A DNA stretch of 64,000 nucleotides from Macrostomum lignano (lineage: Eukaryota): positions 124,001 to 188,000 of the forward strand of contig NIVC01000391.1 in assembly GCA_002269645.1 (NCBI GenBank). The letters are read 5' to 3'. The position numbers and the translations under genes were made by a program. The notes beneath the pieces are model-generated. The model ran no database searches. It saw only the letters and a list, made by a program, of their open reading frames with translations, and was not told the DNA's origin. Positions 3,085-53,284 of the stretch are shown here, piece after piece (positions within the stretch are counted from its first letter, which is position 1; every line of letters begins with the position of its first letter).

Positions 3085-4309
3085 AAGAAAGAATTTATTA
3101 TAATCTATGTTGATTTTAACTTTCGTATTTCTCTGCCTGCTAAAGCGTGCTACCTTACGTCAAAAATAGTAATAGAATCCATTTTTGCAGACTATTTTTA
3201 CCTTACTTATACCAACATAAGTCTAAACATTCTTCCAATAGCATGTCATGTAAATAGGCCCTATTACAGCCAAGGTATGAACTATACTATAGGCATTTCA
3301 TTTTTAAAAAAAATTCTTTTGTTTTATCAATTAATTGCTAATGTGATGGACCTTGGATCTTGAATCTGACCCAATTTAAACTATATTTTAGTCTATATCT
3401 CTTAAAAAATAAAAGTCAGGGGTAAAAACCAAGGTAACATTAATGCCCTCCCTCTCCTACTTTAAAAGTAGGCGGCTATGACTTTCTGGGCCTCCTATAG
3501 TTAGGATCATGTTGTTTGTGCCAGAAGTTATCCAAAAATATTTTGTTTATATGCCAGGTACACCAGACACAAGTTAGTGCACAGGGTTATACTCATGGTA
3601 AGTAAACAATCTACTAGCCTTTCCCTTACTCTAGCATAGACATAAAATACAAAATGTTTTTTCACAAAGCTGTAATCCTTTATGTAATTAAATTATATAC
3701 TTAAAACAATGGTGGATCTAGAGGGGTAGGAGGCAGCTATCTCCCTATTTTGCTATTGTTGGACTTACATATAAGGGAAGCATTGCAATTTTGAACTTAA
3801 TTTAAGCCAATATATCCCCTAACCTAAAAAATAAAAAAATCCATCATTGACATACAACTTTAGAAGCACAATGTACATTTTTTTATCAAAATTTATAAAA
3901 TACAAAATTTTTTATAACTAAAATTTCTTAAGCTTGTACAAACTAGGGATTGACTGACCATGATTTTTTTCATGCATGATTGATTGGAACTAGACTGTGC
4001 ATAAAACTGTGTGTGACCATGAAATTTTTATAACATACATTTTAATTTAAACATAGAACTATTAATATTAATATTATCAAGTCTAGTAATTTTTATTGAT
4101 TAAAATTAAGTCTCTGTTTTATCATGTTTATTGTTTGACTGTATTTTATTATGTGGCTTTGTCATATCTGCACTGATTAATTGGAATTTTGGTTTGCTTT
4201 TCACATTGCTTCCTACTTTAGTCAATGTAATAAAGGAAATCAACAAAATTCATACACCACTTTTCTGATCCTATTGCAATGCATGACATAGGTGTGTGGA
4301 TGCCTACCC

Positions 4310-5307
4310 TGTAGAGATCTCCAAATACGATACAAAGTAAACTACTGTAAGTAGTAACATAAAAATGCGAAAAAATTGAATGTTATAAAAATTGCAAACT
4401 GTCATACTCTATTTTAAGACCGTGAATACAACGTACAACGAAGCATGAGACAAGTTGCAACGATGGTGAAATATGTCGCAACTATGGTGAAATATGATGA
4501 AATGAGATAAAATCTGATGAAATATGATGAAATATGAGTCGCGCTACTAAATATATACCAAAAATTCGACTATAAATATAAGCGTAAAATCCGAGCTGAA
4601 ACCTCAGACTCGGAGCAGCCTCAAAAGATCTTGTGGTTAGTTAGAGCAACTAATCGAGGCTATATCTCTGGGAGAGAAGCGTATCAATTGTGAAGTGTTG
4701 TTCAAGTCTTTGTTATTTTGATTAATTGAGAGCGATTTTATTGCCGGCCGGCCGTTGCTGATCCACTGACTTTACTGAGACTATTTGAGGCCTCCCATTT
4801 TCCTAAGGGATTGGATAGGATCTGCGGACCGATTCCGATACCCTTAGAGGATTACTGACTGTTGATTTGGATTATCCTAGGTTAACCGATAGGAGCACAC
4901 GACTCCGATTCCGTTAGATCTAGAAGAAGACGCCCCCTTTGGAGGACCTCGCGTTAGAATTTGAGTTTATTAGGGCGCACTGTTGATACTGATTTGGCAC
5001 TCGAGAAGCGTACTGAATCCCGCACTCAAGGAGATATTTTGACGTCGACTTCACTGTTCTGCTCTCACTCTCGGCCGACTTTGGACTTCGAAGACTTCAA
5101 GAAGATTCCTCCGGAGAAGAAGATTGGAAGAAGCGAACTCTACAAACGCGCGCAAAAAAAAAGAAACAAGGAACAAGCTCGGAGAACCTGCCCGACACAG
5201 AAGAAGAGCCCGCCACAGTAAGTGAACACGTTAATTTTGTTCCCAGGCTTAAGTGTCTGGAAGTGAGAGTTTTCGGGAGACTGATCACCTCCCGAATCAA
5301 CTCCTCA
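4310..5307 (+). repeat. 5' LTR of element 1
   Basis: TGTAGAG...CTCCTCA, 998 bp; about 10 substitutions versus the 3' LTR by eye (~99% identical). Confidence 0.97.
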
Positions 5308-5309
5308 AC

Positions 5310-5327
5310 TGGTGAGCCCGACGTGAT
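5310..5327 (+). promoter_or_regulatory. Primer-binding site, tRNA-Trp-like
   Basis: TGGTGAGCCCGACGTGAT, 2 nt after the LTR; 17/18 match to the tRNA-Trp PBS TGGTGACCCCGACGTGAT of avian sarcoma/leukosis viruses. Confidence 0.85.
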
Positions 5328-6133
5328 ACTGGGCTCTGAGAATTTTTTGTGTAAAAACACACGTGACCTTATTTGGGCAGTGTTAAAAATTTTCTTTGTG
5401 TAACCGACGTGGTTCGGTTATTGCACAAGTCTTTTGTGCTACTGAGCCCACGCAAAGTCTGGGCAGAGAGAAAATTTGTTATCGCACCTACGAATTTCAA
5501 CTTGATTATATAACTTTTACTGCACACTTGACGAAACTCGACTACTGTTAACGTTTCATTTTGATAAGCCTGACCCCAAAAATTTGCTTAGGCAACTGAT
5601 ACCAATTGTTCATCTCACGCTGCGAGTTTTAAATCTCCACGCTGTTTCACGCTGTTTCATTTTGCTCTAGCTCTCGCTGCAGATACCGCTTATCTAAGGA
5701 ATCACCTGTTGTTTACACACTTAGCGCTCTTGACTGGCCATCAAAAGCGTTATCGCTTGTGTCAAACTTTGCTTGACCCAACCTGCGCTGCAAAGCTACA
5801 CCTATCGCGTTAAAATTTCCGCCTGCAACTAATCCAGTTGTATAACACGTCTATTCATTACTGGAATTCAAACGAAAATTACGAAAAACCACTACCCCAA
5901 AACAAAAGAGAAATTTACGAACTGTCCTACCGTTGTCTTGACGCATATACTCTAAAACTCAAACGAAAAATACAAAAAACAGCTCCCAAAAGAAAACGAA
6001 ATTTACTAACTGAACTACTCTCATACACAACACACATACGTGCAAACAATAAACACTTGCCTACAACGCCACACTGGACGATCCATTGGAAATAGACCCA
6101 GATCTCAACCTTCTTCCATTTCCAATCGACAAC

Positions 6134-7126
6134 ATGGCACGAAGGAACCCTGCCGTCCATCGAGATATTAAGGAAACAGTCGGTTCTTACACTATGGACA
6201 AAGATTTTGCGACCTTCATTGACCACTTTGATTTAGTATCACGAGAATATGGATTACAAAATCCAGAAAAGGCGCTACTCCTTCCTCCATTACTACAAGG
6301 CACAGCCAGAGAAATTTATGGAAAATTGGATGCTGCCACACAGAGGGATTACCATGCCATGATTACCCAACTTCGAACACAGTTCGCACGATGCGGAACC
6401 AATCGATTGGTGTTGTTACACAAACTACACAATCGGAAAATGGCACCCACGGAATCATTCCTTACCTTCGTCGATGATATTCGAAAAATCATCAAAGCCT
6501 TGCATCAACAACAACCTCAACCAGCAGTAGCAGCTCAACCCCTTGGACCAGCAGAAGTGGCTGCTAGAGAAAGACAACGGCTTGCAGATCAAGAACAAAG
6601 TCTAATTCTTAATGTCATTAACAACGCTCAACCTGCCTTGCGAGATAGACTCTTGTGAGAAACAATTGAGACAGAAGAGCAGTTACTCCGCTGCGGAATG
6701 CAGTGGGAGGCAAGCGCACCTCTTCTTGCTAACCGCGCTAGTGACACCACACAATTAGCAGAACAATTAAGCAAGCTTATGCAACAACACCAAGCCGCAG
6801 CAATTGCAATGCGCCCGCAGCAAAGCAACCCTCGAAACGTTACTTGTCACAATTGCGGAAGAATGGGTCATTACTACAGAGATTGCCGACAAAACTTGCG
6901 CCAGAGTCAGCCACGAAATTATTCTGGTGGAAACAGACGAGACAATTGGTCTCGCTATCCTAATCAACAATATCCACCAAACAGAAATCGGATGAATAAC
7001 CGACCACCACCTTGGCGGGATAATCGTCCTAACAACACGATGGTACCTTACAATCCACGCCGAACAGCCCCACCAAGGCAGCCAACGCAGGTTTATAGAC
7101 AGTACACACAGGCCATTGAACCATAG
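6134..7126 (+). pseudogene. gag: Gag of element 1 (capsid-like region plus CCHC zinc knuckle), interrupted by an in-frame TGA at 6656-6658
   Basis: ORFs 6086-6658 and 6698-7126 share one frame; likely start MARRNP at 6134; CHNCGRMGHYYRDC knuckle; ends at TAG 7124-7126. Confidence 0.9.
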
Positions 7127-10100
7127 GTCAGTGAACAACAGGCTATCGAACCAAAATTTTCGGTGGAGGAACTGACGCCAGACTTCAGCATCAATGTACT
7201 TGATACCCTCCTTGAAGACACCGACTACCTGTTACCATCTCCAGTGGTACACGAATCTGAACCAAAATACGAGAATCTTGCTACAATTCTTGCTGCTGAA
7301 CGACGGAAACGGACAAACAAAGCTGTGAATACTCAACCGTTTCACCTCACACGCAACCAGTTCACTCAAACAGAAGATAACACCTACGTTATGATGAATG
7401 TCGGAGAACTGCGTCAAGAGACCTCTTCTATGCCGACTCAACCAGAATTTATGGATACTTTTCGAAGCCACCCTACGACGTGTCACCCACCAGCGTATCA
7501 GGAACCTCTAACACCAGTACCACACTCAAGAAAATGGTTCTTCCATCCACAAGACATTACTCCAGCTGAAGAACCAGAGAATGACTATGAAGAATTGGAT
7601 GAGACCACGATTACAAGTCACTCCAACAACAGAGAAGGACAAGAACAAAGTATGTCGATACCAAAGAAGAGCAAGAAGAGACACCCTCTAATAAAATGGC
7701 TATTTGCGATGATCCTTCTCGTCTTGCTACCACTGGTAACTTCAACTTCAGTACCAATGATCTGTCCTACAGATGCTACTATCCAGCCTGTCATCTACAA
7801 AATTCCTACGGAAGTCAAATGCAGTTACTTTAAGACGAATCAAACAAAGCCACTGCCGCTTACGATCGACATCTACAAAGCAAATACAAAGAAGCACCGA
7901 CAGATGGGAATTGTGTGCTTTAGAGACAAAGACGAACTCAAAAAGATTTGGATGGTACAATGGAACCGAATCAGATATTGGCAAACATCGATGAAGGTAT
8001 CACATGAAGAATGCCTCCAGTGGAACCAAACCCTGTTTTCCAAAGACGGTGAATTGAAGCTCCACGATACCTCAGCAAGCGGAGCACAACTATTCCGCAC
8101 TAACAACGTTGCCGATGGAAGATATGTACATTACCACGCAGCGCGATGGCCACTATACACCGTCTACAACAGCTATCTGATTCGAAACGTCTTGTTCTAC
8201 CACAATCCTTTCGACAACATGGAATCCTTGCAACTACCGCTTGACCAATGCCACTACAGCTCAGGATATTGCGCTACTCCTAACTACTACAAAGAGGAAG
8301 CTCAAAACTTACCGCTAGCTCCAAATTATTTTCATAACTATCGATACCAAATCGAGTACAGATCGGATTCTCGATACAAGGAACCGAGTCGAACTCGCAA
8401 ATACTTCATCGCATGGGAAGTTAAAACTGAAATAGATTGCAAACTACGGAAATACCACACTGTTCAAGGAAAATTGTTATCCAACACCTTCCTTGCAGAC
8501 TCCGGAGATCTAGCTCTTACTTTTCCGAAACAGCCAAGCTACACACAGTTGAAATGTAAAGACAACAATGAACAACTAATCCTATCTGACCAAGAAATAC
8601 CAATCATGCTAAAAGATATGGAGAAGAGCGTATTCTTGAAGGTAGTAAATGGAACCTATCCAAAAGAAGAAACATTGGAAAGACAGAAGCGAAACCTGGA
8701 TAAACCCTCGCTAGTATCGGCACGACTTCTGGCAGCAAAGCTGGCCACCATGGAACACAAACTACACAAGCAACTGAACTATCTGCACCGATCCATGGTC
8801 AAACTAACATGTCAAATGCACGAAACCAGTCTAAATTATGCAAGACAAAACTATTATGTCAATCCCACGACGACCTTCAGGAAGATCACAGGAATTGAAG
8901 ATGTCCTGGCAATTCCAGTCTACGGATATTTGCTAATCTACAAGTGTACTCCAATACAGCATTTCAACATTTTGCCGGCAAAAACGGCAACAACCTGTTA
9001 CGATAAACCCCGTATCGAAGCCTTCCACAATGGAAGACGAATTCAAGGATTTTTGGACACAGTACACAACATCATTGTCGGAACTGCCATTCCACGACCA
9101 TGTACCAACTCAGCTAACTATTTCAACGTGAATGGTCTACTACATCAAATTTCGTCGATGGGAGATATCAAGAACATCTCAAATTCACAGCTTATCGTTG
9201 ATGAGATGTACGAAATGTCCGATCTTCAGTTGAAATTCAATAAGCCCTTTGGAGATATTAAACTGGATGAAATCACCCCAGGATGGACAATTAACGATTT
9301 CCTACAAGTCTTTATCTCACAACGACAACTACTAACGAAGCTTTTTACGGAACGACAACGAGATGCAAAACGACCTACATCGCCGATGGGAATGACCATG
9401 CATAACGCCATCCAATCATTTTGGTCAAACAGCTTTTTGGATTTGATACAAGGAAGAGGAAGTCTGTACCAAGGATTCATATTTTCTAGCGCATGCATCG
9501 TGTGGGTCCATTTGGCGCTCATAATCCTCGTAACTGCAGTCAGATGTGCAGCAAGAGCCTGCCCTCAACAACTACATATTTTCCCAGTCGGACAAAAGGA
9601 AGACGAAACAAAGGAAGAACCAACGGAAAATACGCCACTACAAGAAATGACACCGCCAGTGCCGATGCCAACAGCTCCAACAACTCAAGACATTTATCCG
9701 AAAATTAATCATAAACTTGCTACGCCGTTGCCAACTCCACCACCGCACAACAGCGATCCAAAATGGCCTGAAAATTACGTCTGCACACTACAAGCCAACA
9801 TGGGACGTGCAGTAGCACAGGTCCTCATCAACAACTTGCCTAGTAAGGCACTTCTCGATTCCGGTAGCTCAATTACCGTCATCACGAAGAAGCTTTGCAA
9901 CAAACTACAACTAACCTTGCGTCCAGCCTCCATCGCCATTGCAGGAGCAGGAGGACATGCTCTCAACATCTTGGGACAAGCAGGAATCACACTCAAGATT
10001 GCGAACAAACAGCTACCAGTCCAGGCGTACATCATTGACCATCTGCCAAATCAAGACATGATTATTGGAATCGACACCTTCCGACAATTGAAGTTACCGC

Positions 10101-12271
10101 TTACGTTTGACTTCAACAAGCAAATGTTCAAACTCAACAATACGGAACACCCACTAGTGAGTCAAATTCAAGTCCAGCCAAAAGTACACCTGACACACGA
10201 CGTCTTCATTCGACCGGAAAGCACTTACTGGATTCGAGCCTCAATTGTTACCTCGGACGAAGTAGAAGAAGCTATGATTTTTGAGCCAAAACGAAGATTA
10301 CTCACAAACCGAGAAATCCTCATTCCCACAGCACTGGTACTAATCACAGCCGACAAAACGATTCCGGTACAAATTGTCAATCCTAACCAGCACCCAGTGA
10401 GAATCTATGCAGGAACTTGCATTGGACACCTTAGCACACAAGCTTCAGTGATGCTTATTCAATCAACGTCGACAACATTACCAAGGCAACAATTCCTAGA
10501 ACAAATCGATCTGTCACAAAGCCCGATTACTGAAGAACAAAAGAACCAAGTTAAAGATCTTGTATGGAAATACAACGACGTCTTCTGCCACCACGACTAC
10601 GACATTGGGCGAGCCAAAGACATCAAACAGAAGATCACCTTGCTGCCACACCAGGAACCAATTCAATGCAAACTGTACCCAATTGCGAAACACCTACAAC
10701 AACATTTTGACAAAATCATCGAGAAAATGCTCAAAGCCGGCATCATCAAGAGGACAGTTTCAGCCTATTCCTCGCCATGCTTGCTTGTCGAGAAGAAAGA
10801 AACAAACGAGAGAAGACTTGTCTGCGATTTTCGAGTCCTAAACAAGTATATTCCGACAGATCAACAAAGTCTACCCAAGATTTCGGAACTTCTGGCAAGA
10901 CTCAACACAGCGACACTCTTCACAGTCTTTGACCTACATCATGGATTTTGGCAAATCGAACTAGAAGAAGATTCTAAGCAATACACAGCCTTCAAAACGT
11001 ACAAAGGAGAACTCTTCGCTTACCAAAGAAGTCCTATGGGAATTTCAAACTCACCTGCCACAATGAGCCGACTAACAGCCTACATGCTTGCGGGATGTAC
11101 CAATCTACTCCACTATGTCGACGACATTCTTGCTTTCGGAGAAGATTTCGAACAACTACTCCAAACGATGGAACTCGCGTTATTCCTTCTCAGGCAACAA
11201 GGTCTCAAGCTACAACCCACCAAGTGCAAGTTTTGCCGAAGCTCGGTACGCTACTTGGGACACCACGTATCCGCAAAAGGAATTTCACCGGATCCCAGTA
11301 ATGTGGAGAAGATAAAGAAATTCCCGCGACCAACCTCTATAACAAAATTGCAGTCATTTCTGGGACTTGCACAGTACTTCCGAAAGTTTCTGCCAAACTT
11401 TGCCAAAACTGCCCAACCGTTGTACGAACTGCTAAAACACCCAAAGTGGAAAGAAGAAAACTGGAAGGACAAACAACAAGAAAGCTTCGAAAAGATCAAA
11501 CACCAACTGACGACCGACGCCTTACTGCAACATCCAAACTTCCAAAAACCTTTCATCATTGAAACCGACGCCTCAGGAAGTGGACTAGGCGCAGTCCTAC
11601 TACAAGAAACGGAAAGAAAGGTCGAAAAACCCATCGCCTACATCAGTCGAGCTCTACGACCAAACAAAACCAAGTGGTCCGCCACAGAACGAGAATTACT
11701 TGGAGTTCTGTTTGCACTACGACAGTTTCACTACTACATTTACGGTTCTCCATTACCGACAATCATCAGGACCGATCATGTACCGCTGACACACGTTGTC
11801 AAGACGAAAGGACAGACTAACAACCGCCTCATCCGAATGACACTCAAAATTCAGGATTACAACTTCCAACTAGTCTACAAACCGGGACCACTCAACAAAG
11901 CCGCAGATGCCCTTTCCAGAGCCTACGAAGTCAATGCCATTCATCCAATTCCGAAAATGCAAGAATTGATTACGGCACAGCAAGACGACACCTTCTACAA
12001 GGCCGCACAAAGCAACAACGACACCACGCAAGCCAAATTAACAAAACAAGAAAGAAAATTCCTTAAAAAACAGAGCGACAATCTAATCTTCAAAGAAGCA
12101 ATCCTTTATTGGATCTGTGACAACATTCCGCGACTCTATCTGCCATATTTGTTTCGAGCCGCCATCTTGCAAGAATTGCACGACATGCCAAGAAACATGC
12201 CACGACAGGACACCTTTCTGCCAAGAAGACAATCGACCGAGTGGCAAAATTCTACTTTTGGCCGACAATGA
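7127..12271 (+). CDS. pol: Env-Pol polyprotein: leader, internal signal sequence, class III-like glycoprotein, TM, tail, aspartic protease, RT, RNase H; in frame with gag across one TAG
   Basis: Codons 7127-7162 are open and in the gag frame. LLDSGS protease (~9851), RLVCDFRVLN, DLHHGFWQI, YVDD (11114-11125), ETDASGSGLGAVL and TDH RNase H motifs. Confidence 0.92.
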   Translation, partial: VSEQQAIEPKFSVEELTPDFSINVLDTLLEDTDYLLPSPVVHESEPKYENLATILAAERRKRTNKAVNTQPFHLTRNQFTQTEDNTYVMMNVGELRQETSSMPTQPEFMDTFRSHPTTCHPPAYQEPLTPVPHSRKWFFHPQDITPAEEPENDYEELDETTITSHSNNREGQEQSMSIPKKSKKRHPLIKWLFAMILLVLLPLVTSTSVPMICPTDATIQPVIYKIPTEVKCSYFKTNQTKPLPLTIDIYKANTKKHRQMGIVCFRDKDELKKIWMVQWNRIRYWQTSMKVSHEECLQWNQTLFSKDGELKLHDTSASGAQLFRTNNVADGRYVHYHAARWPLYTVYNSYLIRNVLFYHNPFDNMESLQLPLDQCHYSSGYCATPNYYKEEAQNLPLAPNYFHNYRYQIEYRSDSRYKEPSRTRKYFIAWEVKTEIDCKLRKYHTVQGKLLSNTFLADSGDLALTFPKQPSYTQLKCKDNNEQLILSDQEIPIMLKDMEKSVFLKVVNGTYPKEETLERQKRNLDKPSLVSARLLAAKLATMEHKLHKQLNYLHRSMVKLTCQMHETSLNYARQNYYVNPTTTFRKITGIEDVLAIPVYGYLLIYKCTPIQHFNILPAKTATTCYDKPRIEAFHNGRRIQGFLDTVHNIIVGTAIPRPCTNSANYFNVNGLLHQISSMGDIKNISNSQLIVDEMYEMSDLQLKFNKPFGDIKLDEITPGWTINDFLQVFISQRQLLTKLFTERQRDAKRPTSPMGMTMHNAIQSFWSNSFLDLIQGRGSLYQGFIFSSACIVWVHLALIILVTAVRCAARACPQQLHIFPVGQKEDETKEEPTENTPLQEMTPPVPMPTAPTTQDIYPKINHKLATPLPTPPPHNSDPKWPENYVCTLQANMGRAVAQVLINNLPSKALLDSGSSITVITKKLCNKLQLTLRPASIAIAGAGGHALNILGQAGITLKIANKQLPVQAYIIDHLPNQDMIIGIDTFRQLKLPLTFDFNKQMFKLNNTEHPLVSQIQVQPKVHLTHDVFIRPESTYWIRASIVTSDEVEEAMIFEPKRRLLTNREILIPTALVLITADKTIPVQIVNPNQHPVRIYAGTCIGHLSTQASVMLIQSTSTTLPRQQFLEQIDLSQSPITEEQKNQVKDLVWKYNDVFCHHDYDIGRAKDIKQKITLLPHQEPIQCKLYPIAKHLQQHFDKIIEKMLKAGIIKRTVSAYSSPCLLVEKKETNERRLVCDFRVLNKYIPTDQQSLPKISELLARLNTATLFTVFDLHHGFWQIELEEDSKQYTAFKTYKGELFAYQRSPMGISNSPATMSRLTAYMLAGCTNLLHYVDDILAFGEDFEQLLQTMELALFLLRQQGLKLQPTKCKFCRSSVRYLGHHVSAKGISPDPSNVEKIKKFPRPTSITKLQSFLGLAQYFRKFLPNFAKTAQPLYELLKHPKWKEENWKDKQQESFEKIKHQLTTDALLQHPNFQKPFIIETDASGSGLGAVLLQETERKVEKPIAYISRALRPNKTKWSATERELLGVLFALRQFHYYIYGSPLPTIIRTDHVPLTHVVKTKGQTNNRLIRMTLKIQDYNFQLVYKPGPLNKAADALSRAYEVNAIHPIPKMQELITAQQDDTFYKAAQSNNDTTQAKLTKQERKFLKKQSDNLIFKEAILYWICDNIPRLYLPYLFRAAILQELHDMPRNMPRQDTFLPRRQSTEWQNSTFGRQ
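7688..9541 (+). CDS. Envelope-like fusion glycoprotein domain (herpes gB / chuvirus G / rhabdovirus G-like class III fold, inferred)
   Basis: Hydrophobic signal LIKWLFAMILLVLLPLVTS, Cys-rich ectodomain with N-x-T/S sequons, furin-type RQKR (8681-8692), gB-like NPTTTFRKITGIEDVLAIPVYGYLLIYKC and CYDKPRI..GFL..PC..YF blocks, TM segment at ~9473-9541. Confidence 0.75.
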
Positions 12272-13341
12272 CCAAAGACATCAGCAAATATTGCCACGAA
12301 TGCCATTCATGCGCAGCCGCCAAAACAGGACGACGCCAAAAGCCACAATTACAAACGGTACCTAAAACAACGACATGGGACACAGTCTCCCTCGACATTA
12401 CGGGACCGCTACCTGCCGCACGACAACACTCAATCAACTATACCTACATTCTCACCGCTCTCGACGTCTTCTCGAAATTTGCTGTAGCAATTCCACTGCC
12501 GAACATTACCGCCGAAACAGTAGCTATGACATTCTACAACGAGATTGTCTGCAAGTATGGAACACCTAAGACTCTAACCACCGACAACGGAACACAGTTC
12601 ACTTCACAAATATTTCAACAAGCTGCAAAACTGCTTAACATACAACAAATCTTTACGTCAACCTACAACCCCAAGGCAAACCTAGTAGAAAGATTTCACC
12701 GCAACCTACACGAAATGTTGACTCATTATGTCTACAAGCAACCAGAAGACTGGATCATCTACCTGCAAGCAGTAACGATGGCATACAACAGCGCGAGACA
12801 TCGGTCAACAGACAATACGCCATTCTTCTTAATGTTCGCTCGAGATTTTCAACCGCCCAGCCTACTCGCCAAACAATTACTGCCATCTCAGTATGTGGAA
12901 ACACCGTCGACACTCCACACCTTTGCAACACAACTACACCTGGCTTGGCAAATTGCCAAACATAATCTTGACAACCAGACGGCAACATCGACAACAGCCA
13001 ACAACGCATCTACGCTACAAGTCGGAGATATGGTCTACTTGCACTATCCAGCCCAACAGACGCATAAACACGCTCAAAAGTACAAAGGACCATTTTGAGT
13101 ATCAGCACTGACTTCGGCAACCACAGCCAAACTGGCCAATGTCCAAGATCCACATCAGCCGCAGTTCTATGTGCACATTCAACGACTGAAACGCATCAAC
13201 ACAGACTCTACGTTTCTGCCAAATTTAAACAATGAAAATCACACAAAAACACCGTCTAAACATATTGCTACTTCTCACGCCGAAACACAAACTACGGACA
13301 ATTCCCCAACTAACCACTCCTATAACCTCAGACCCCGCTAG
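12200..13341 (+). pseudogene. Integrase of element 1 (HHCC, DDE, GPF module), frameshifted from pol near 12190 and with a TGA at 13096-13098
   Basis: TGHLSAKKTIDRVAKFYFWP..CHEC, SLDITGP, TDNG, NLVERFHR; after KGPF* the frame continues VSALT..VHIQRLK..HSYNLRPR-TAG (13341). Confidence 0.9.
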
Positions 13342-13447
13342 ATTACTAACACCCGTGTGGAACTCGGGAAAGAATAAGTCCACAGCTCCTCTGTGCTTGT
13401 CGTAAGAGGCGACTCAACAGATATTCCTTAGCAACCGAAACGCAACA

Positions 13448-14116
13448 ATGGCTAACACATTCGAATGCCCTGTCTGTCTAGACGACACTCTCACCAAGAA
13501 ACCTCCGTGTATATGTGTAAATAACCACCGTGTATGCGGATCCTGCTTAAGTGATGCTCACCATATCCAGCCCTGGCAAGCCTGCCCCATGTGTCGTGGC
13601 GCCCTACGACAATGTATGGTTTGTACATCATGGCGCACCTACAAGTTCTGTACAAATGAACATTTTCTATGCATGCAGTGTACCAAGAAATTAGCCACTC
13701 GAGAAGTGCTTATGTGTCCTGAATGCGATGCTTTTCCTCTAGTAAAAATGCGCGATCAACTTTTACGTATACAACCGGTACAAACGGTTCAGTTATCTGC
13801 ATCCATAGTGCATCAACTCGCTCCAATAGACGCTATTCGCCGACTAGATGAGTGGCCCCTTCCTAGAAACTCTCGCTCCGCATATGTGCACCTCGTTATG
13901 TACGCACATCATAATAGACACCAATTAATACTCTTTCCGTTACAATGTATTCAGCAACGTCTTTTACGGTACCTATCAATATGCGAGCAACCAAGTCTCC
14001 CATTTCACTGTGCTATAATACCACTACTTATCAAAAAGCATGCCGATTTAACCATGTTAGTAACGTACAATGAGTTAACAGCCTGGCAAGGCAATACGTA
14101 CGACGAAGTAGATTAG
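13448..14116 (+). CDS. Accessory ORF A, 222 aa: two tandem RING-like zinc fingers plus a C-terminal EWPLP domain (putative E3 ligase)
   Basis: FECPVC..C.NNH.VCGSC..CPMCR (SINA/Siah-like spacing), then CMVC..CTNEHFLCMQC..CPEC. Confidence 0.8.
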   Translation: MANTFECPVCLDDTLTKKPPCICVNNHRVCGSCLSDAHHIQPWQACPMCRGALRQCMVCTSWRTYKFCTNEHFLCMQCTKKLATREVLMCPECDAFPLVKMRDQLLRIQPVQTVQLSASIVHQLAPIDAIRRLDEWPLPRNSRSAYVHLVMYAHHNRHQLILFPLQCIQQRLLRYLSICEQPSLPFHCAIIPLLIKKHADLTMLVTYNELTAWQGNTYDEVD

Positions 14117-14149
14117 TAAAGTTTACCAGTACCTTCCCTTATTCCCCAG

Positions 14150-14752
14150 ATGGAATCATGTCCCGTGTGCTACGAGGAAGAAATCACACCATACGTCTAC
14201 TGCCAGAACGCACATAGGCTGTGTTTCCTCTGCCGCACTACAGAACTGATTGACAAGTGCCCCCTGTGCCGAGCACCACCTACCAACTGCCAAGTGTGCA
14301 ACGCCGTCCCACAAAGGCAACTCTGTGAAAACAAGCACTGGGTATGCCACGACTACGTCATGTCGATACAGCGATACAACATTACAAGGTGTGTCACCTG
14401 CGCTCAACCAATCTTAATCGACACCCCGGGCAACAATGAATTCAAAATCACGCTAACGACGGACACCTTAAACAACTTAAGGACAACTGATCTTGCCCAG
14501 ATCATCAGAGAGTGGCCTATACCCTACAACCGGCAACCGCAGCTAACCTTCTTGTTCCAACGGGCCCGACATTACGCCATGACGACAAACGCCCTTCCTG
14601 CGGAGGAAATCTACCTCAACCTACTTCACGAGACCAACACTCAGGAGTACACAGCAGTTCAACATCTCATTTGGCCCATAGCATTACTAACGGCAAGTAT
14701 CAATAACTACTTTATCACAACGCTCAACAACCACTTTGCTTCTTGCTACTAA
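14150..14752 (+). CDS. Accessory ORF B, 200 aa: double RING-like paralogue
   Basis: CPVC..CQNAHRLCFLC..CPLCR; the second finger has Tyr at one Cys position (CHDY); IREWPIP motif. Confidence 0.8.
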   Translation: MESCPVCYEEEITPYVYCQNAHRLCFLCRTTELIDKCPLCRAPPTNCQVCNAVPQRQLCENKHWVCHDYVMSIQRYNITRCVTCAQPILIDTPGNNEFKITLTTDTLNNLRTTDLAQIIREWPIPYNRQPQLTFLFQRARHYAMTTNALPAEEIYLNLLHETNTQEYTAVQHLIWPIALLTASINNYFITTLNNHFASCY

Positions 14753-14953
14753 ACATTCACATAGCTCAATTGACTAACACTTAGTGATGAAAGATAAGAA
14801 ACTCTACGCCATAATCACAAGCGATAACCATCGCAACTCTCAAGCCCACTACAACTAGTCCACCATAATATATATATGTCTGCCACTACTCGCCTACATA
14901 CATAGCACACGCCCTACGAAACTACCCTACCACGCTACCATAACTTGCTTATA

Positions 14954-15562
14954 ATGTCTGCAGTAGAATGCCCTGTCTGCCTGGAGGAGGCCACCTACCA
15001 GCAGGTGATGTGCCAATACGGGCACAAAACCTGCTTCAGGTGCGTCGACTCCAGCATGATAGCCACTTGTCCACTATGTCGCGACCCACTCATAGCGTGT
15101 AGCCTTTGTGGGGACAATCCCCAGGTGAAGCTGTGCCAGTCTCGTCACTGGTGCTGCTTCACCTGCCTGCAAAGGCTGGGTACACGTGGTATCACCTATT
15201 GCCCTAATTGCCTTGACACTCTCCTTCCCCCGACAGTAGAATTAAACCAAAATACCGAAATCTGGCCAGAGGTGGGCCTGTATAACCTGGAACAATTCAC
15301 CGAATGAGAAATCGCCAGCAACATCCGAGAGTGGCCGCTGCCGGTCAAATTGCACGACGCACGCCAGCGACTGCTAGCTTTCGGCCGGCAACAAGCGGTT
15401 ACGGAACCGCCTAGATCGGCGGAGGACATCTACAACCAACTAACTAATACGATGAACAGCTCCCACTACATCCCACTACAACATCTGTTCTGGCCAGTCG
15501 CCATCTTGGTGACACGAACGCAACGATACATCCGGCGCACTTTGACGGACATTTTTCAGTAA
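14954..15562 (+). pseudogene. Accessory ORF C: double RING-like paralogue with an in-frame TGA at 15305-15307
   Basis: ECPVC..CQYGHKTCFRC..CPLCR, CSLC..CQSRHWCCFTC..CPNC; ORFs 14945-15307 and 15350-15562 share one frame; IREWPLP follows the stop. Confidence 0.8.
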
Positions 15563-15807
15563 ACACTGACACTATCATGTACTTAACGGTTTTACTTCTA
15601 TGTGTGTATCTTGTACCTTCATATTTGATTCTCCTCATTACGTGAAACATTGCTCCGTTTTCACTATTTCATTTCACCTATATGTAATTGCTTCAGAATC
15701 AGGCATGCGATGGTATCATGAAAATCACTGTAACCACCGTGTAAATAAAATAATATCCACCATTTAATTACTCACATTTTAACACAAATTCGAGACAAAT
15801 TTTTCGT

Positions 15808-15822
15808 AAAAAAGGGAGATAT
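15808..15822 (+). promoter_or_regulatory. Polypurine tract of element 1
   Basis: AAAAAAGGGAGATAT immediately before the 3' LTR. Confidence 0.85.
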
Positions 15823-16820
15823 TGTAGAGATCTCCAAATACGATACAAAGTAAACTACTGTAAGTAGTAACATAAAAATGCGAAAAACTTGAATGTTATA
15901 AAAATTGCAAACTGTCATACTCTATTTTAAGACCGTGAATACAACGTACAACGAAGCATGAGACAAGTTGCAACGATGGTGAAATATGTCGCAACTATGG
16001 TGAAATATGATGAAATAAGATAAAATCTGATGAAATATGATGAAATATGAGTCGCGCTACTAAATATATACCAAAAATTCGACTATAAATATAAGCGTAA
16101 AATCCGAGCTGAAACCTCAGACTCGGAGCAGCCTCAAAAGATCTTGTGGTTAGTTAGAGCAACTAATCGAGGCTATATCTCTGGGAGAGAAGCGTATCAA
16201 TTGTGAAGTGTTGTTCAAGTCTTCGTTATTTTGATTAATTGAGAGCGATTTTATTGCCGGCTGGCCGTTGCTGATCCACTGACTTTACTGAGACTATTTG
16301 AGGCCTCCCATTTTCCTAAGGGATTGGATAGGATCTGCGGACCGATTCCGATACCCTTAGAGGATTACTGACTGTTGATTTGGATTATCCTAGGTTAACC
16401 GATAGGAGCACACGACTCCGATTCTGTTAGATCTAGAAGAAGACGCCCCCTTTGGAGGACCTCGCGTTAGAATTTGAGTTTATTAGGGCGCACTGTTGAT
16501 ACTGATTTGGCACTCGAGAAGCGTACTGAATCCCGCACTCAAGGAGATATTTCGACGTCGACTTCACTGTTCTGCTCTCACTCTCGGCCGACTTTGGACT
16601 TCGAAGACTTCAAGAAGATTCCTCCGGAGAAGAAGATTGGAAGAAGCGAACTCTACAAACGCGCGCAACAAAGAAGAAACAAGGAACAAGCTCGGAGAAC
16701 CTGCCCGACACAGAAGAAGAGCCCGCCACAGTAAGTGAACACGTTAATTTTGTTCCTAGGCTTAAGTGTCTGGAAGTGGGAGTTTTCGGGAGACTGATCA
16801 CCTCCCGAATCAACTCCTCA
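15823..16820 (+). repeat. 3' LTR of element 1
   Basis: Direct repeat of 4310-5307 followed by TSD ACCC. Confidence 0.97.
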
Positions 16821-18139
16821 ACCCTAACTGCACCACAGTGACATGATGGATGGGGGGACTGCTTCACACTTTTCAGCCTCCCGTTGCCTCCCCCTACTTT
16901 GTAACACCATGCCATACCTCCTGCTGCTCCCTATTGGAATAAGTTGACAAAATGCAGATGACCATTCATCACATTTTCAGATTCTCCTGGTGTCATGTTG
17001 CGCAACAGTGGTATCAAGTGGTGTATCGAGTTGCGCAATAGTGCCATCTAGCATTGTGTTGCGTTGCGGCTGCACAACACTGTGGCAACCTGGTGTCATC
17101 ATGTGTCACATTGTGGCCTGAATCTGCAGCCAAAACCTCGCAAACTGCATTTCATTGTAATCTGTTCACAGTTGTTTCTCAGTATTTAAATGTTTCAAAC
17201 ATGTTTGATAATAACTAGTTCTTGAAATTTGTTTTTATTTATTTTAACAGTAAAGTAAACAATACTTCAAATATAATTTTTAGAAATGTTACTTGTTAGT
17301 TACAATGCAGGCGCTGTTTTTCTAACTGTTGTACCTTTGTTGTTTACTTTTTATTGTTTTTAAATTTCATTTCTTTTTCTGAGAAATTGAAAGGAATACT
17401 CTGATCCCTCACCCCATGGTCTCAGTCTCGAGAGTGAATGGCAGAATGGGAATTGTAAATTTAAGTGAATGCTTGATGCCCTGATTTTGTCTCCCCCAGT
17501 CATTTGGTCAACAGACATTGGTGTCACGTCGCCGCGTCACCCCCCTACCAGTCAACAAAATTTAGTGTCATATCACACTTTTGAGGGTACAATTTTGGCA
17601 CCTGTGTGGGAGGAGGAGTCAGCAGGTTTTTGAAACTTTTTCCAATAGGGCTGCTGCTTTGCCCTGCCATGCTATGCCAGGCTGATAAGCGCTAGATGCT
17701 ATCCACCAAAATGTCTATGCATTGCAATTGGACTTTTTGTAGGTTCCACCATAGCCATAGTTATGGCTATGGGATCTTACAGCAAATATGGTAAAATAGG
17801 TGCCTATGGCAGCTACAGATATGCCTATGGTAGCTAGCTGCTCTTATGGCTACGACTACAGAAATATAATAGTTGCTGTCACATTCTATGGATTCCTATA
17901 GCCGTAGTTATTAATTTTTTAAAATTTAAAAAAGTATTAGAAATAGGTAGAGTAAAACAAAGATACTTTGGTAAACTGTATTATCAACTTAGAAAATAAA
18001 TAAAATATGAGGCCAACTCTGTTGGCAGAAAAAAGGGGATAGAACTCCCATTGCCAGAATTTCATTCCCTGAAATCCATCAGCTGAATCCAATGACACAA
18101 ATCCCATCGTCCAAATCCTCTCCAAAATTCTATTAACCT

Positions 18140-22775: not shown

Positions 22776-22923
22776 TCTCAGTGTATAGGAATCACCACTG
22801 TTACAACTTGGTGGCAGCGTAAAGGATTAGAGAAACGGCCAAAAATTAGACAGATCAGAGAAACGGCGAAGAACTCCGGCAGTTGAAGATCATCAGTAAG
22901 AAATTTTAAGATTAAGAAGAGAG

Positions 22924-23940
22924 ATGGCTAATGCCAATGATGCAATCGCTATGCTAGCTGAAGAGCTACGGAACAGGTTAGAATTAGGACCACAAAGGCA
23001 CGTGAAAATTCAGAAATTTACACCTGGCCAAGACATCAGGATTTGGCTGACTGCGTTTGACCAGCGCTGTGAAACTGAAGGTATTGAAGAAGATCACCGG
23101 AAGCAAGAGCTTCTCGCGAACCTCGACCTGGCTACTGCATTCGCAGCAGTTCAGCGTCTGAACCTCCCAGATGATCTGGAGTACGAAGAATTTAAGGAGA
23201 GACTTATAGAGCGCTTTGGTAGAATCGGAAGTTCAGCAGAGTTTAGAGAAGAATTTAGAAGCCGAATGCAAGGCAGGAATGAGTTAGTAGAATCGTACAC
23301 TGATTGTCTAATTGAGCTAGCTTCGCGAGCCTTCCCGAACATGACTATGGAACAGCGGGAAGAGGAGATCGTGGAACAGTTCATCAAGGGTGTGAGAATT
23401 CCACCTGAAACCCGCGAGAAACTGATCTTCGCTCAGCCAGCTAATCTGCAAGAAGCTAGAAGGATGTTGAGGAGAATGGAAGCAGCCTGGAACATGTCAC
23501 GCAGGAACTCAGGTATGAGAGTGGCTAGGAATGAGGAAGAGCAAGAACAGAAGAGGGCTGAACAGGAAAGGCTGGAAGAGATCATTAAGAAGCAGAAGTT
23601 TGAGATCGAACAGCAGAGGAAGGCTTTGCAGGAGCTAAGAGAAGAGAAGATGCAGAATAATCAGCAGCAGTATCCGCAGAATTATTCGTACGCTCTAGCA
23701 GCCAGGCAGTATCCGCAGAGATACCAGCCTCAACAGCTGCGGCCTGTTCCGCCACAGTATGGAGCGCAGGCGCGACAGCAGATGTTTGCCGGGCAGCAGC
23801 ACCCGAACCAGGGTCAGCCGAGACAACAGTCGCAGACTTGCTATAACTGCGGGAAGATCGGCCACATTGCAAAGCAGTGCAGGAGTGCCAAGCAGAACGT
23901 TCCGCAGATGCCGAATCGTCAGAATAATCAGGGAAACTGA
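22924..23940 (+). CDS. gag: Gag of element 2, 338 aa
   Basis: Capsid-like region (FRSRMQGRNELVESY), coiled coil, Q-rich tract, CYNCGKIGHIAKQC knuckle. Confidence 0.92.
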   Translation: MANANDAIAMLAEELRNRLELGPQRHVKIQKFTPGQDIRIWLTAFDQRCETEGIEEDHRKQELLANLDLATAFAAVQRLNLPDDLEYEEFKERLIERFGRIGSSAEFREEFRSRMQGRNELVESYTDCLIELASRAFPNMTMEQREEEIVEQFIKGVRIPPETREKLIFAQPANLQEARRMLRRMEAAWNMSRRNSGMRVARNEEEQEQKRAEQERLEEIIKKQKFEIEQQRKALQELREEKMQNNQQQYPQNYSYALAARQYPQRYQPQQLRPVPPQYGAQARQQMFAGQQHPNQGQPRQQSQTCYNCGKIGHIAKQCRSAKQNVPQMPNRQNNQGN

Positions 23941-26900
23941 GAAGCGAGGGCCGAATTACGAGGCCACGTCCCTCTAGCGAAATCCAGAGCAAAATTCAGG
24001 CCTCTGAATTTGTAAATAATGCGTACAAAGTTAACAAACAGTACATGTATAGGCCACGCGAAGATTATAATAAGTTCAGAAAACCAAACAAAAAACATGC
24101 GAATGCACATACAGTACCGAATGTAAATACTACGCGTGCACCTATTTGCTCACCTAAGAAAAGTACTCCAAGCCCGAGAGAGGAGTACGTTAAGATGAAT
24201 GAAAGTGCAGACGAAGAAGTTATTACTAGCGCAGAGAAGAAAGGAAGAGAAGCAGTTATCGATGGAAAGATTCGTAGGCAGAACATTCGTTTCTTACTAG
24301 ACACAGGAGCCGGTCACAACTTCTTAAGTAAGAGTACTTGGAGAAGAGTATGTAGAGAACAGGAGATCAGGCCATCTGATCGGAGAGTAACCGCTTTCGA
24401 TGGAGCAAGAGTACAGATCGAAGGAGAAGTATCAGTGACAGTAATGTTCGGAGAGATAGAGATCGAGACCGACTTCCTGCTGTGCAATCACGAATGCGAC
24501 GATATTCTAGGAATGGAGTTCTTCATGAACTTTTGCGAAAGTATGAGCTTCGATAAGGGAATGATGGTTCTAAAAACAGGAGAATGTATTCCAATGCAGT
24601 TTACTAAGTTGCCGGTACGAGTTTGCCGAGTATACTGCTATGACAAGGTAGTCGTGCCAGCTAATAGTGCTTTAAGAATACCAGTCAAATTAGCCAAAAG
24701 AGCAGAAATGAACTACGGTACGCCGATGATGATCGAGACGACTAAAGGACATATTCCAGTAAACGAAGACTCACTGGATATGGTTCCAACCCTACTAACG
24801 ATGAAAGACGGAACCGGAGTAGTAGAAGTAATTAACAGACAGAGCAATGACGTAACAATTAGAAAATCAGCAATGGTAGGCATTGCCAAGCCATTGAAAG
24901 CCAAAGAGCTAACTTACTTTGTTGCTAAGAAAAACACTGGACAAGTCAACTCCGCGAAATGCACCGAAAATGCTGAGGATGCCGATGAATGGATTCAGGA
25001 GGTTAACATCTCGGATGAGCTAACACCAGAGCAGAAAGACAAAGTAATCGAGTTACTCAAAGAGAATAGGAAAGCATTTTCGCAGACGAATCAAGACATG
25101 GGTCTCACGCATCTTGTGACCCACGAGATATCGTTAAAGGACTCGACGCCAGTCAGAATACCTACTCGCAGAATACCACCGCATCTGCAGAAACAAGTAG
25201 ACGAACAGTTAGACGATATGCTCGCTAAGAATTTGATAAGACCGTGCTATAGCACCTATTCGACGCCATTAGTAATTGTGCCTAAGAAAGATGGAACGAT
25301 TAGGATTGTCAGCGATTTCAGAGTCTTGAACTCTCGAGTTAACTATTATCCATATCCGTTACCGAATATTCAAGAGACCTTCTCTCATCTAACGGGAAGC
25401 CAATACTTTAGCAGCTTAGACTTAAATTCAGGCTATTGGCAGGTACCGATTAAGGAAGAGGACAAATTTATGACGGCATTTTCGACTTTGACTAGGGGAC
25501 AGTTCGAGTATCAGGTCATGGCTCAGGGACTATCTAATGCACCTGGAACATTCCAGAGATTAATGAACCTAGTGCTGATGGGAATTCAGCACAAGTTCGC
25601 CATGTCGTACATTGACGACATAGTAACCTACTCAGAGAGATTCGAAGATCACTTGAGTCATTTACGAGAAGTATTCAAGAGACTAGTGACAGCCGGATTA
25701 AAGTTAAGGCCGAAGAAATGTAATCTATTCCAGAAAGAGCTTAAATATCTAGGACACATAGTTGGCAGAGAGGGAATTAAGACAGATCCAGCTAAGATAG
25801 AAGCAATCCAGTCATGGCCGACGCCTAAGGACGTTAAAGAATTAAGAAGCTTCCTAGGTCTCTGTAATTATTACTGTAGGTTCGTGAAGAATTACGCGGA
25901 AGCAGCGCACCCGCTCTTCCAGCTAACTAAGAAGGGAATTCAGAATTTTAGGGAGAAATGGACTAAGAGTCATGATGAGGCATTTGCGCTGTTAAAGCAG
26001 AAAATGACATCAACCGAAGTCTTAGCATACCCAGAGTTCACAGACAACGAAGAAGTTCGAATGGTGCTTGACACTGACGCGAGTGATGACAGAATTGGGG
26101 CCTGCTTAGGTCAGATACAATCCGATGGAGTCGAAAGACCCATCGCGTACTTTAGCAGGGCCATGAAGGAATCGGAAAAAAGGTATCCAATCACGAGAAA
26201 AGAATTGCTAGCATTAGTGGACGGAATGAAACACTTCCGATTCTATCTCATCGGAAAGAGATTCCTGGCAAGAACAGATCATCGCGCTATTCTATGGCTA
26301 CTTCGCCAGACTGAAGCGCAGGGAATCCTCGGTAGATGGATAGAGAGGTTAAGCGAATTTCAGTATGACATTGAACACCGCAGTGGTGCTAAACACACCA
26401 ATGCAGACGGACTATCCAGACGACCCGCAGAACGATTAGAGAAAAATCAGGAGGCTAAGGCAGAAAAGTGCACTGACGCTGAGACAGGTCCAGTACCTCC
26501 TACCGTTACGGTAAATCGAAGTCAGACCGAAGTCTCAAATTGCAAGCACCAGAGCTGCCAGACTGATCTGATTAGAGAAGAAGTAGAAGATGATGAAGAG
26601 TTCGAAGATGCAAGAGAGTATTTCGAAGATGAAGAAGATGAGTACGAAGACGCCAGCGATTATTTCGCTGATGATGAAGAGGTATATGACGATGCAAAAG
26701 AGAGTTTTGAGGGAACCTCTTGTCGGAAACTCCTTACCGACTATCTCTTTGTCCCGCTTAAGAAGGAGCAGCTGACATCAGCTCAGCGTGACAACCCTTC
26801 TACAAGGACGCTGATAGCTTGGAAAGAGCAGAAAATCCAAGAGCCGAAATTGCTCGAAGATGCAACTAGAGAGCTGAAGCAGATGGCAAAGTTCTATCAG

Positions 26901-28487: not shown

Positions 28488-28892
28488 TCAAATTTGTATC
28501 ATGCCAAGTATTAAAATTGTAAATAGGTTTGCTTAAAAATTAAAAATGTTCTATGAATAAAATCTGTTGTAAATATTAAAAAAATTATAAAAATATAAAA
28601 AGTTTAAACAAAAAAAAAATACAAAAACATTGCGCATTACTAATAGTAGAGTATAGAGAATTGTGCAGTAAAGATTCGAGAACCACTCCGCATAAAAATC
28701 CTAGCAACGCTTAGTAACGGTGCGAACCAATGAGCGAGCCCGTTTGAAATTTGCTAAACCCTCTCGAGCGAACACGAAGATGCGGTCCAGTTTTTCGAAT
28801 ACATTATGAAAACACGAGCCAACCCAAGGAATCATATTAGTTCTCACTGTAAGCTTAAAGATTACAAACCATCAAGTCTGACAAGCCCAGCC

Positions 28893-29777
28893 ATGGAAGA
28901 CGAGAATATCGACGATTTCCTGAAGGCTCTGCTCGACGAAGAGGTGCCGATCTCAACGCCGCCGCCGCAGGAAGCTTCAGCGGCCGCAGCTTCGTCAGCA
29001 CCAACAACAGCCTCGTCAGCCGCCTCGTCGTCGGCAACCTCATCAGCGCCAACATCAGCAGCCCCGCCAGCAGCCCCCGAGGACGAAGCACCGCTCCGAC
29101 AGCCGACTCGGCCCCGCGCTCTTGGCAGTTCGAACAAGCGGCCTCGAGAACCGTCGCCTGTCGCTTCAAATGCTCTGCAGTTACGCGTCGATGAGCCCCC
29201 GCATCAAAAGCGCGCCGCTGTCATCAGGGCTCAAGCAGCAGCACCCGTACAGCAGTACATGCCGCAGAACTGCCGAGCAGCCGCCGCAAGCCAGGAGAGG
29301 CGCACCGTGCAGCTGCCGACACCATCGACGGTACCGAAGCGAACGGCTCGTGGTCCACGACTGAGTGCAGCACCGGCAGCCCCGGCACCAGCTCCGGCAG
29401 GATCGACAGTTGCCCAAGAACATCTCGAAAACACTCTGCGAGAGGCGATGCACGCTGTTCTGCGTCAGCATGGCGAGCAACTCGAGAAAATCGCCCACGC
29501 AATCCGCCAGTATCTCATGCGGATTGGCCGTCTTCGATTAGATCAGGCCTTGCCGCAGAGGTCTCAGGTTTGGACAGCGATCAGGGCTCTGCGAGACCGT
29601 CTCGAGCAACGGCAGGCTGTCACGGTACTGCAGTACATCGCCCTCGGCCTCCGCCGTGCCATGCCTCCAAGTGACGAGACTGTCCAACATCAGCTGCTCG
29701 CAGTTGAAATGCGCTGGCTGTTTGCCCAACTCGGCTGGCCATACTACCGAGAACTGCCTGACCCATGCAATTTTTAA
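28893..29777 (+). CDS. Orphan ORF3 of element 2 (~294 aa from GCCATGG; open frame from 28806): acidic N-terminus, Ala/Pro/Ser-rich linker, helical C-terminus, no TM segment
   Basis: Long intact GC-rich ORF between pol and the PPT with strong Kozak context. Confidence 0.7.
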   Translation: MEDENIDDFLKALLDEEVPISTPPPQEASAAAASSAPTTASSAASSSATSSAPTSAAPPAAPEDEAPLRQPTRPRALGSSNKRPREPSPVASNALQLRVDEPPHQKRAAVIRAQAAAPVQQYMPQNCRAAAASQERRTVQLPTPSTVPKRTARGPRLSAAPAAPAPAPAGSTVAQEHLENTLREAMHAVLRQHGEQLEKIAHAIRQYLMRIGRLRLDQALPQRSQVWTAIRALRDRLEQRQAVTVLQYIALGLRRAMPPSDETVQHQLLAVEMRWLFAQLGWPYYRELPDPCNF

Positions 29778-48620: not shown

Positions 48621-48734
48621 CCGCGTGCTCACTGCCAGCTACCAGTGCTGCCTGACTGTCCAATTGCGAACTCAAGTTCTTCCCAAGTCACCACTGGGCC
48701 TGGGCAAACTGGCTGTCCCCCCTGCACTCCCAAC

Positions 48735-52915: not shown

Positions 52916-53284
52916 CTAATCTGGCACTAATGTGTACTGTAGTATCCGATCGTATCTCCAAGGAAGAATTAATTCAGTCTACAAGATACATGTATGCCTT
53001 CCATTCCATATACTAAAAATGGTCTCTAACTAGAGTTGATTCGACCTACTAAAGTTGATAAGCACACAGACACAGTCGAGTGTGTGCTACTGTTTCATTT
53101 AGTGTGGAATTTTCGGTCTAGCTCGTAATTTAGGTGAGACTAGCAATCTTCGCCCCCCGTTGGGGGACATCTGTATAGAACCTCTGTTCTCTACAAGTAA
53201 CAAAAAGATAGCCAAAAAAAGGCTTCACAAAGAAAACAGACAAAATACTCAAAGGAAGTGCAATGCAAAAAGAAATTATCCCAA

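Follow-up and report, generated by a model that had tools for sequence, protein, structure and literature searches.

Ty3/gypsy 'errantiviruses' of the GAG-ENV-POL layout, with an envelope of the HSV/gB type, have been described from flatworms, nematodes and bryozoans in the main text of Chary and Hayashi (PMC13524379). The giant gypsy-like elements of planarians, Burro/GYPSM1, carry domains related to ubiquitination and apoptosis (AIR1 RING-like, MATH/TRAF, BIR, BCL2 and SUMO-like) according to the available text of PMC6431247. Extra ORFs between pol and the 3' LTR are reported, in the accessible parts of the respective papers, for bdelloid rotifers (ORF3s, DEDDy and GDSL; PMC5408684) and for plants (aORFs; PMC7264820), and the gypsy-class element Cer1 of C. 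elegans has CERV, an accessory cysteine-containing protein with a role in gRNA export (PMC10309623, available text).

We analysed a window of 64,000 nucleotides of Macrostomum lignano DNA (positions 124,001 to 188,000 of contig NIVC01000391.1; "the window" below means this whole stretch), in which a retroelement carries a cassette of three genes for RING-like proteins between its integrase and its 3' end. The viral RING E3s ICP0 of herpesvirus, p28 of poxvirus and IE2/PE38 of baculovirus degrade host restriction factors. To our knowledge, few cases of animal retrotransposons countering host defence at the protein level have been documented.

An env-carrying Ty3/gypsy element and its 3' cassette

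The cassette lies inside a Ty3/gypsy-type LTR element that occupies positions 4310-16820 of the 64-kb window. The features of the element, in window coordinates, are as follows.

4310-5307, plus strand: 5' LTR (10 mismatches per 1000 bases against the 3' LTR)
5218-5223, plus strand: candidate splice donor GTAAGT in the LTR (similar motif in the LTRs of two divergent subfamily groups)
5310-5327, plus strand: primer-binding site (PBS), starting with TGG immediately 3' of the LTR
6134-7126, plus strand: gag, in several frames in the window copy (zf-CCHC E 4e-5, weak gag-family matches)
7127-12271, plus strand: env (putative gB-type)-protease-RT-RNase H frame (protease, RVT_1 and RNase H above the Pfam cut-off)
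12121-13341, plus strand: integrase in its own frame, with an internal stop at 13096-13098 in the window copy (rve E 2e-16)
13352-13413, plus strand: conserved non-coding RNA element 5' of gene 1, a predicted pseudoknot (13352-13384) and two hairpins (subfamily alignment)
13448-14116, plus strand: gene 1 (R1 class), 222 aa, with a RING, a second C3HC4 finger and a helical WP domain (open ORF)
14130-14149, plus strand: candidate splice acceptor, a pyrimidine tract and CAG directly 5' of the gene 2 ATG (CAG-ATG count)
14150-14752, plus strand: gene 2 (R2 class), 200 aa, architecture as gene 1 (open ORF)
14954-15562, plus strand: gene 3 (R3 class), broken in the window copy by an in-frame stop at 15305-15307
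15807-15820, plus strand: polypurine tract (PPT), from sequence; the same tract occurs in other subfamilies
15823-16820, plus strand: 3' LTR (LTR pair comparison)

The paired LTRs, target-site duplication, PBS, PPT and gag-env-pol order identify an env-carrying Ty3/gypsy element of the GAG-ENV-POL type. The target-site duplication, four bases long, flanks the element on both sides when the LTR end is taken at CA, and the gene order is gag, env, protease, RT, RNase H and integrase, with env between gag and pol. The env region matches the PF24664 fusion glycoprotein at E 3e-5 to 8e-5, below the curated cut-off. The window copy is young, with LTRs 99% identical, and damaged, with gag and pol split into several frames.

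In gene order, and putatively in env type, the element agrees with the errantiviruses as presented in the main text of PMC13524379. A table of that paper includes a single element from Macrostomum lignano; its PBS is identical to the one found in subfamilies L044, L054 and L066, so that it probably belongs to the cassette-bearing family. The terms RING, zinc finger, accessory and ubiquitin have 0 occurrences in the main text, where the 3' cassette is undescribed, and the main text of PMC12801592 does not mention RING. Our literature search found no description of the cassette; subscription papers, supplements, repeat databases and the earlier LTR classification cited in PMC12801592 may annotate these ORFs.

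All three cassette genes lie where the sequence-only reading had placed them, between the integrase and the PPT (at about 15807-15820, with the 3' LTR from 15823). Its description of three consecutive ORFs of ~200-220 aa holds for genes 1 and 2 (222 and 200 aa) and fails for gene 3 of the window copy, where the stop is codon 118 and leaves 117 aa; other copies of the gene-3 class are open across this point. The spacers measure 33 nt between genes 1 and 2 and 201 nt between genes 2 and 3. The genes are paralogous (25-34% identity, BLASTP E 1e-13 to 1e-38) and under purifying selection (see below), which bears out the idea of old in-element duplications that were retained. Each contains two back-to-back fingers of the pattern C-x2-C...C-x3-H-x2-C-x2-C...C-x2-C, with 3 matches in the window versus 0 in 50 shuffles. 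The two C3HC4-like fingers proposed for every gene are thus recognisable as a pattern in each, but finger 2 of the window copy of gene 2 is short of one of its eight ligands (residue 69).

Other features of the window lie outside this element. At 22900-29777, a second, env-less gypsy element with gag (22900-23940) and pol (23928-28487) precedes a 339-aa frame, which had no match in Pfam and is possibly another 3' extra ORF. On the minus strand, a host frame with an RRM domain at 348-1256, overlapping an Arg/Asp-type repeat, resembles an exon of a splicing factor. At 59555-62716, minisatellites are surrounded by long inverted repeats (236-290 nt, 98-100%), and many tandem arrays are spread from 44000 to 63000.

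Fingers, C-terminal domain and homologues

Finger 1 has all eight C3HC4 zinc ligands in 21/21 aligned family members, and in its CPxCR end the Arg after the last Cys is present in 21/21 and the Pro in 20/21. The ligands and the Arg are also found in homologues absent from this genome, in 16/16 pattern-matched rows of 17. We take this finger 1 Arg to occupy the linchpin position within the RING motif. According to the available text of PMC12326332, a linchpin Arg stabilises closed E2~Ub, and some active RINGs do without it. In finger 2, ligands 5 and 6 are present in 18 of 20 pattern-matched rows, and one of the exceptions is the window's gene 2. The last Cys of finger 2 is followed by a linchpin Arg in 0/20 rows of one set (A2), and by Arg in 0 and Lys in 1 of the 16 rows of another (A3). 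The SINA/Siah-like character ascribed to finger 1 is visible in the 19 of 21 family members that match Sina_RING at E up to 0.1, but remains below the Pfam cut-off in all three whole proteins of the window.

The predicted models are confident, with pLDDT values of 92.8 and 88.7 for genes 1 and 2. The RING of the gene 2 (R2) model superposes on the E2-bound RINGs of cIAP2 and BIRC7 with an rmsd of ~2 Å over 43-46 columns, at a Foldseek probability of 0.99 but with E above 0.1, and finger 1 also has an rmsd of ~2 Å to the RNF146 RING (predicted model). The top Foldseek row in the PDB is the SIAH1 RING-ZnF1 at E 0.02; no row in the PDB or BFVD reached E 0.001 or better, and the structural rows in BFVD are RING-only. 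The best VIA matches of the fold searches have Z-scores of 5.6 and 5.3, and the neighbours of finger 2 include the Nse1 RING (Z 5.3, rmsd 2.7, 61 aligned) and Lassa Z (Z 4.9, rmsd 2.2, 48 aligned). Both fingers are modelled as RINGs, and finger 1 bears in its sequence and predicted fold the marks of an active RING E3. E3 activity of the cassette proteins is likely. The earlier term 'double-RING', read as a double-RING E3, overstates finger 2, which never has the linchpin Arg; the catalytic look is limited to finger 1. Membership of the RBR ligases was rejected, as six residues separate the last Cys of finger 1 from the first of finger 2 and Pfam scans gave no IBR family.

The C-terminal WP domain is helical in both models and, searched within the whole-protein models, has no significant fold match. 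Nothing in the libraries searched matches it, and the ESM Atlas offered for gene 2 only RING leads below 0.9, with no usable match for the C-terminal domain. The EWP(L/I)P motif earlier described for this domain is replaced by x-W-P, with W and P in 21/21 aligned members and the preceding E in only 3/21.

A profile search of 1.84 billion representative proteins returned six proteins at E up to 1e-10. P0002 belongs to the cassette family, P0003-P0005 are full-length homologues, P0006 is a partial one and the sixth protein consists of repeated SINA RINGs; further homologues are P0015 and P0153. P0002, a UniRef gene model labelled Macrostomum lignano, is by eye nearly identical to the L042 and L047 proteins. 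The best identity in this genome is 33% for P0004 and about 32% for P0005, and P0003 has no match there at E 1e-45; since P0003-P0005 are without a close counterpart in this genome, the cassette protein family exists in other organisms. Within the searches run, full-length homologues are confined to the cassette-bearing family and a few contigs absent from this genome. A single-protein homologue search with gene 2 yielded 9 candidates, none significant, and the gene-1 alignment gave 60 and 86 pattern matches against viral and metagenome contigs, none confirmed.

Of the cassette proteins, only finger 1 resembles host SIAH genes (40-44% identity over 43-56 residues), and own-genome searches detected neither finger 2 nor the WP domain in any host gene. 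The cassette genes are therefore not close to a host gene fragment, a possibility raised from the start, since the SIAH resemblance ends after finger 1. We infer that a SINA-type RING was captured and then duplicated inside the element. Separately, loci L106, L109 and L110 (contigs C210, C1491 and C2920 of this genome, G000) hold clustered host exons with a SINA-like RING and then a B-box-like motif, an arrangement that we take to be TRIM-like; they are cassette-like in finger 1 only.

Selection, family spread and putative expression signals

Neutral evolution across sibling copies, named in the sequence-only reading as an observation that would speak against it, is not what is found. Selection is purifying, with pairwise Nei-Gojobori dN/dS values of 0.10-0.47 in 25 of 30 pairs (5 are saturated, and the pairs are not independent); in 24 of these 25 estimable pairs the upper 95% bootstrap bound stays under 1. 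For the window copy, dN/dS is 0.19-0.30 for gene 1 and 0.17-0.38 for gene 2, in each case against three close copies, and 0.26 for gene 3 against a diverged copy with the stop codon left out. The integrase, for comparison, gives 0.03-0.13 in 7 of 8 pairs. Over 8 disjoint pairs the fingers have dN/dS values of 0.10-0.28 and the C-terminal domain 0.13-0.38, so both halves are constrained, and pairwise dN/dS gives no average signal of positive selection in either. The cassette genes are kept as proteins by purifying selection.

The cassette is a family trait. As anticipated, it recurs across the element family: own-genome searches gave at least 150 matches for gene 1, 133 for gene 2 and 150 for gene 3, figures that are not copy numbers. 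Among 40 stretches picked for diversity, 25 have the integrase directly 5' of the cassette; 12 of the other 15 have family PPT or LTR similarity and 3 have no context by those tests. Depending on the subfamily, the cassette comprises three or two genes or a single truncated one, and its gene number and class vary while RT is 77-94% identical between subfamilies. With near-identical RT, L043 and L045 differ in their second gene, and L042, L051 and L055 have either two genes or one truncated gene. The two subfamilies with a single truncated gene account for about 22 and 19 rows among the matches listed in the gene-1 search (inspected in 4 and 3 stretches), and their RT protein is that of a two-gene subfamily. 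Both cassette genes are open in a derivative that lacks pol and has identical 925-base LTRs. Since genes differ or are lost between near-identical RT backbones and the pol-less derivative keeps both, the cassette is modular and dispensable in cis.

Judged by sequence, the paralogue classes appear old. They are 22-46% alike, the first split of the protein tree separates the position-1 class from the downstream classes (this deepest join is long-branched and uncertain), and homologues absent from this genome sit on both sides of it. The RT tree comprises elements of this genome only.

The co-occurrence with the gag-env-pol layout that was to be checked does not hold. The cassette is not tied to it: the sister gag-env-pol families (RT 38-44% identical) have no RING gene, two of them having instead an unrelated ORF of ~255 aa at this place and one having none. 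In the 16 stretches examined, the sole profile match was a member of the cassette family.

Several observations concern the surroundings of these copies. The sister-family ORFs after the integrase (L072:4321-5103, L074:4369-5130 and L083:6187-6504) measure ~255 aa plus a further ~105-113 aa, and Pfam gave nothing significant for these extra ORFs. In L044 and L066, internal deletions between 100% identical LTRs have removed most or all of pol and kept the cassette region. Contigs C272, C2121, C1130, C87 and C4009 of G000 contain many clustered copies and fragments from different subfamilies, on one strand per contig, which suggests nested insertion or a piRNA-cluster-like locus; C1405 has a sister element on the opposite strand.

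The predicted pseudoknot before gene 1 and the CAG before the gene 2 ATG are new, putative expression features. The pseudoknot element fills ~60 nt between the integrase stop and gene 1 and is conserved across subfamilies, and its pattern has 101 matches in this genome versus 0 for the control. The hairpin loop and the downstream 3' strand covary in three variants, as they must in a pseudoknot; the variants are related and so amount to modest evidence. Rfam over positions 4000-17000 returned nothing at E up to 1, the pseudoknot included. A role as a readthrough or frameshift signal was rejected, because the integrase and gene 1 of the window are in different frames, L051 has intervening stops and the spacer is variable.

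A CAG ends 0-2 nt before the ATG in 9/9 second-position genes of several classes, against a background of 57 of 1223 ATGs, and in 2/2 sister-family ORFs. It is absent from first-position genes (0/7; in two of them the start was taken a codon too late, and neither reading has a YAG nearby) and from third-position genes (0/4). Two contigs of run X1, whose RNA nature is a guess, depart from the element exactly after 5217; the other side of this loose end matched no acceptor in the loci examined, and no spliced joint to any cassette gene is among the best 15 of 22 joints listed. Contigs of three runs, guessed to be RNA, cover the cassette, coverage being no measure of transcription or its level. 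Some contigs, those of the likely-DNA run included, join the LTR end (5307) to gene 1 at 13560 and 13757, which suggests that LTRs have inserted, in nested fashion, into the cassettes of other copies. Because trans-splicing and multi-gene precursors are frequent in M. lignano (PMC5730564, available text), a cis and a trans route are both possible for gene 2. The notion that gene-1 members are start-less and obtain their start from a spliced leader was rejected, as an ATG is present further upstream. One gene-1 class, to which window gene 1 does not conform, begins MGNALSK or MGNAQSR (L042:6498, L041:3455 on the minus strand, L051 and L055), a start that resembles an N-myristoylation signal.

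Proposed function and comparison with known systems

We suggest that the cassette proteins are small RING E3 ubiquitin ligases which the element family supplies itself and which act in trans as accessory proteins, with a counter-defence target as their leading use; as a whole mechanism this is put forward tentatively. Finger 1 would very probably be the catalytic RING that binds host E2~ubiquitin. Finger 2, with zinc ligands and no linchpin, would be structural or would aid substrate binding together with the helical WP domain. Gene 2 would plausibly be read from RNA spliced to the acceptor at its ATG, in cis from the LTR donor or by host trans-splicing, and the pseudoknot could plausibly serve the expression of gene 1. 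Each paralogue might conceivably send a different host restriction protein, a silencing or antiviral factor, to degradation. If the benefit is shared between copies, cassette-less copies can still spread.

Counted in favour of this explanation are the purifying selection, the invariant finger 1 ligands and Arg, the RING model, the old classes, the changes of cassette gene number and class over similar RT proteins, the open genes of the pol-less derivative and the precedent of ubiquitin-related cargo in Burro (PMC6431247). The joints listed include no spliced joint to the cassette, and genes 1 and 3 are without CAG-ATG; both count against it. The counter-defence target in particular is weakened by the spread of abundant truncated-cassette subfamilies, by sister families with other extra ORFs or none, and by the missing signal of positive selection, because an arms race might give one. 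Constant purifying selection with no arms-race signal fits a conserved target, and the same E3 hallmarks would serve ligases aimed at element proteins or neutral host machinery, which would ubiquitinate Gag or Env for budding or, for copy-number control or superinfection exclusion, remove a receptor or the proteins of competing elements. The env gene of the element and the N-myristoylation-like start of one gene-1 class also speak for this reading. However, that MG start is restricted to one class, truncated-cassette subfamilies and RING-less sister families persist, and a single element-encoded target creates no obvious need for several classes only 22-46% alike; we consider ligases of this kind somewhat unlikely.

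The proteins could also be non-catalytic zinc-finger adaptors or decoys that, much as arenavirus Z does, bind E2s, RNA or RING partners in the host, blocking or redirecting them with no ubiquitin transfer. The linchpin Arg, which finger 2 has in 0/20 rows, and the Nse1 RING and Lassa Z among the structural neighbours of this finger point this way, but the low Z-scores reflect the shared RING fold only, and an invariant CPxCR in finger 1 over 22-46% identity is the pattern of an active ligase, so that adaptors or decoys are unlikely. That the genes are captured host fragments or passengers, useless to the element, is highly improbable. It would agree with the broken gene 3 and the missing ligand of gene 2 in the window, with the loss of most of the cassette in some subfamilies and with the identity of finger 1 to host SIAH RINGs (40-44% over 43-56 residues); yet defects in single copies are expected after insertion, host genes with finger 2 or the WP domain were not found, conserved non-coding signals flank the cassette genes, and dN/dS far below 1 between subfamilies already largely refutes it.

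Should the cassette proteins be ligases, the genes would be ready-made baits, whose ubiquitinated targets are probably things the element gains by removing, and the contest of transposon and silencing in stem-cell-rich flatworms would become directly testable. Near-identical RT backbones with three, two or a truncated gene provide a natural comparison, and transgenesis is available in M. lignano (PMC5730564, available text). The widest claim would be of an animal LTR retrotransposon lineage with its own diversifying anti-defence ubiquitin ligases, encoding the ligase outright in parallel to lentiviral accessory genes, with a substrate domain of no described family and expression through an undescribed pseudoknot and host-style polycistronic trans-splicing; taken together this is doubtful. 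If the anti-defence reading is true, the ligase substrates would name transposon-restriction factors of a regenerating flatworm.

Precedents exist both for extra ORFs in the slot between pol and the 3' LTR and for ubiquitin-related cargo of flatworm elements, so the cassette is not a new class. With the SINA/SIAH RING E3s it shares the SINA-type ligand spacing of finger 1, but SIAH zinc fingers and a TRAF-type substrate domain are lacking and the C-terminal domain is all-helical in both models, for which reasons membership was rejected. The viral RING E3s are likewise small, parasite-encoded RING proteins; they are DNA-virus genes with no full-length homology to the cassette, and the analogy would be a functional one. 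CERV, reportedly made from a spliced gag-region transcript of Cer1, differs in that its Cys loop is not a RING and the protein is not an E3. Rotifer ORF3s and plant aORFs, as far as the available text of PMC5408684 and PMC7264820 describes them, resemble the cassette in slot, family-specific gain and loss, and expected expression from a spliced message. RING and ubiquitin have 0 occurrences in the available text of PMC5408684, whereas the cassette is a tandem gene family of up to three members within the element. The nearest precedent is Burro, which is also flatworm gypsy-like, has an in-frame env located between gag and pol, and carries ubiquitin-related cargo. Its domains, according to the available text of PMC6431247, lie mostly within an ORF1 polyprotein of ~5000 aa, whereas the window element has stand-alone, duplicated genes of ~200 aa 3' of the integrase, a different architecture.
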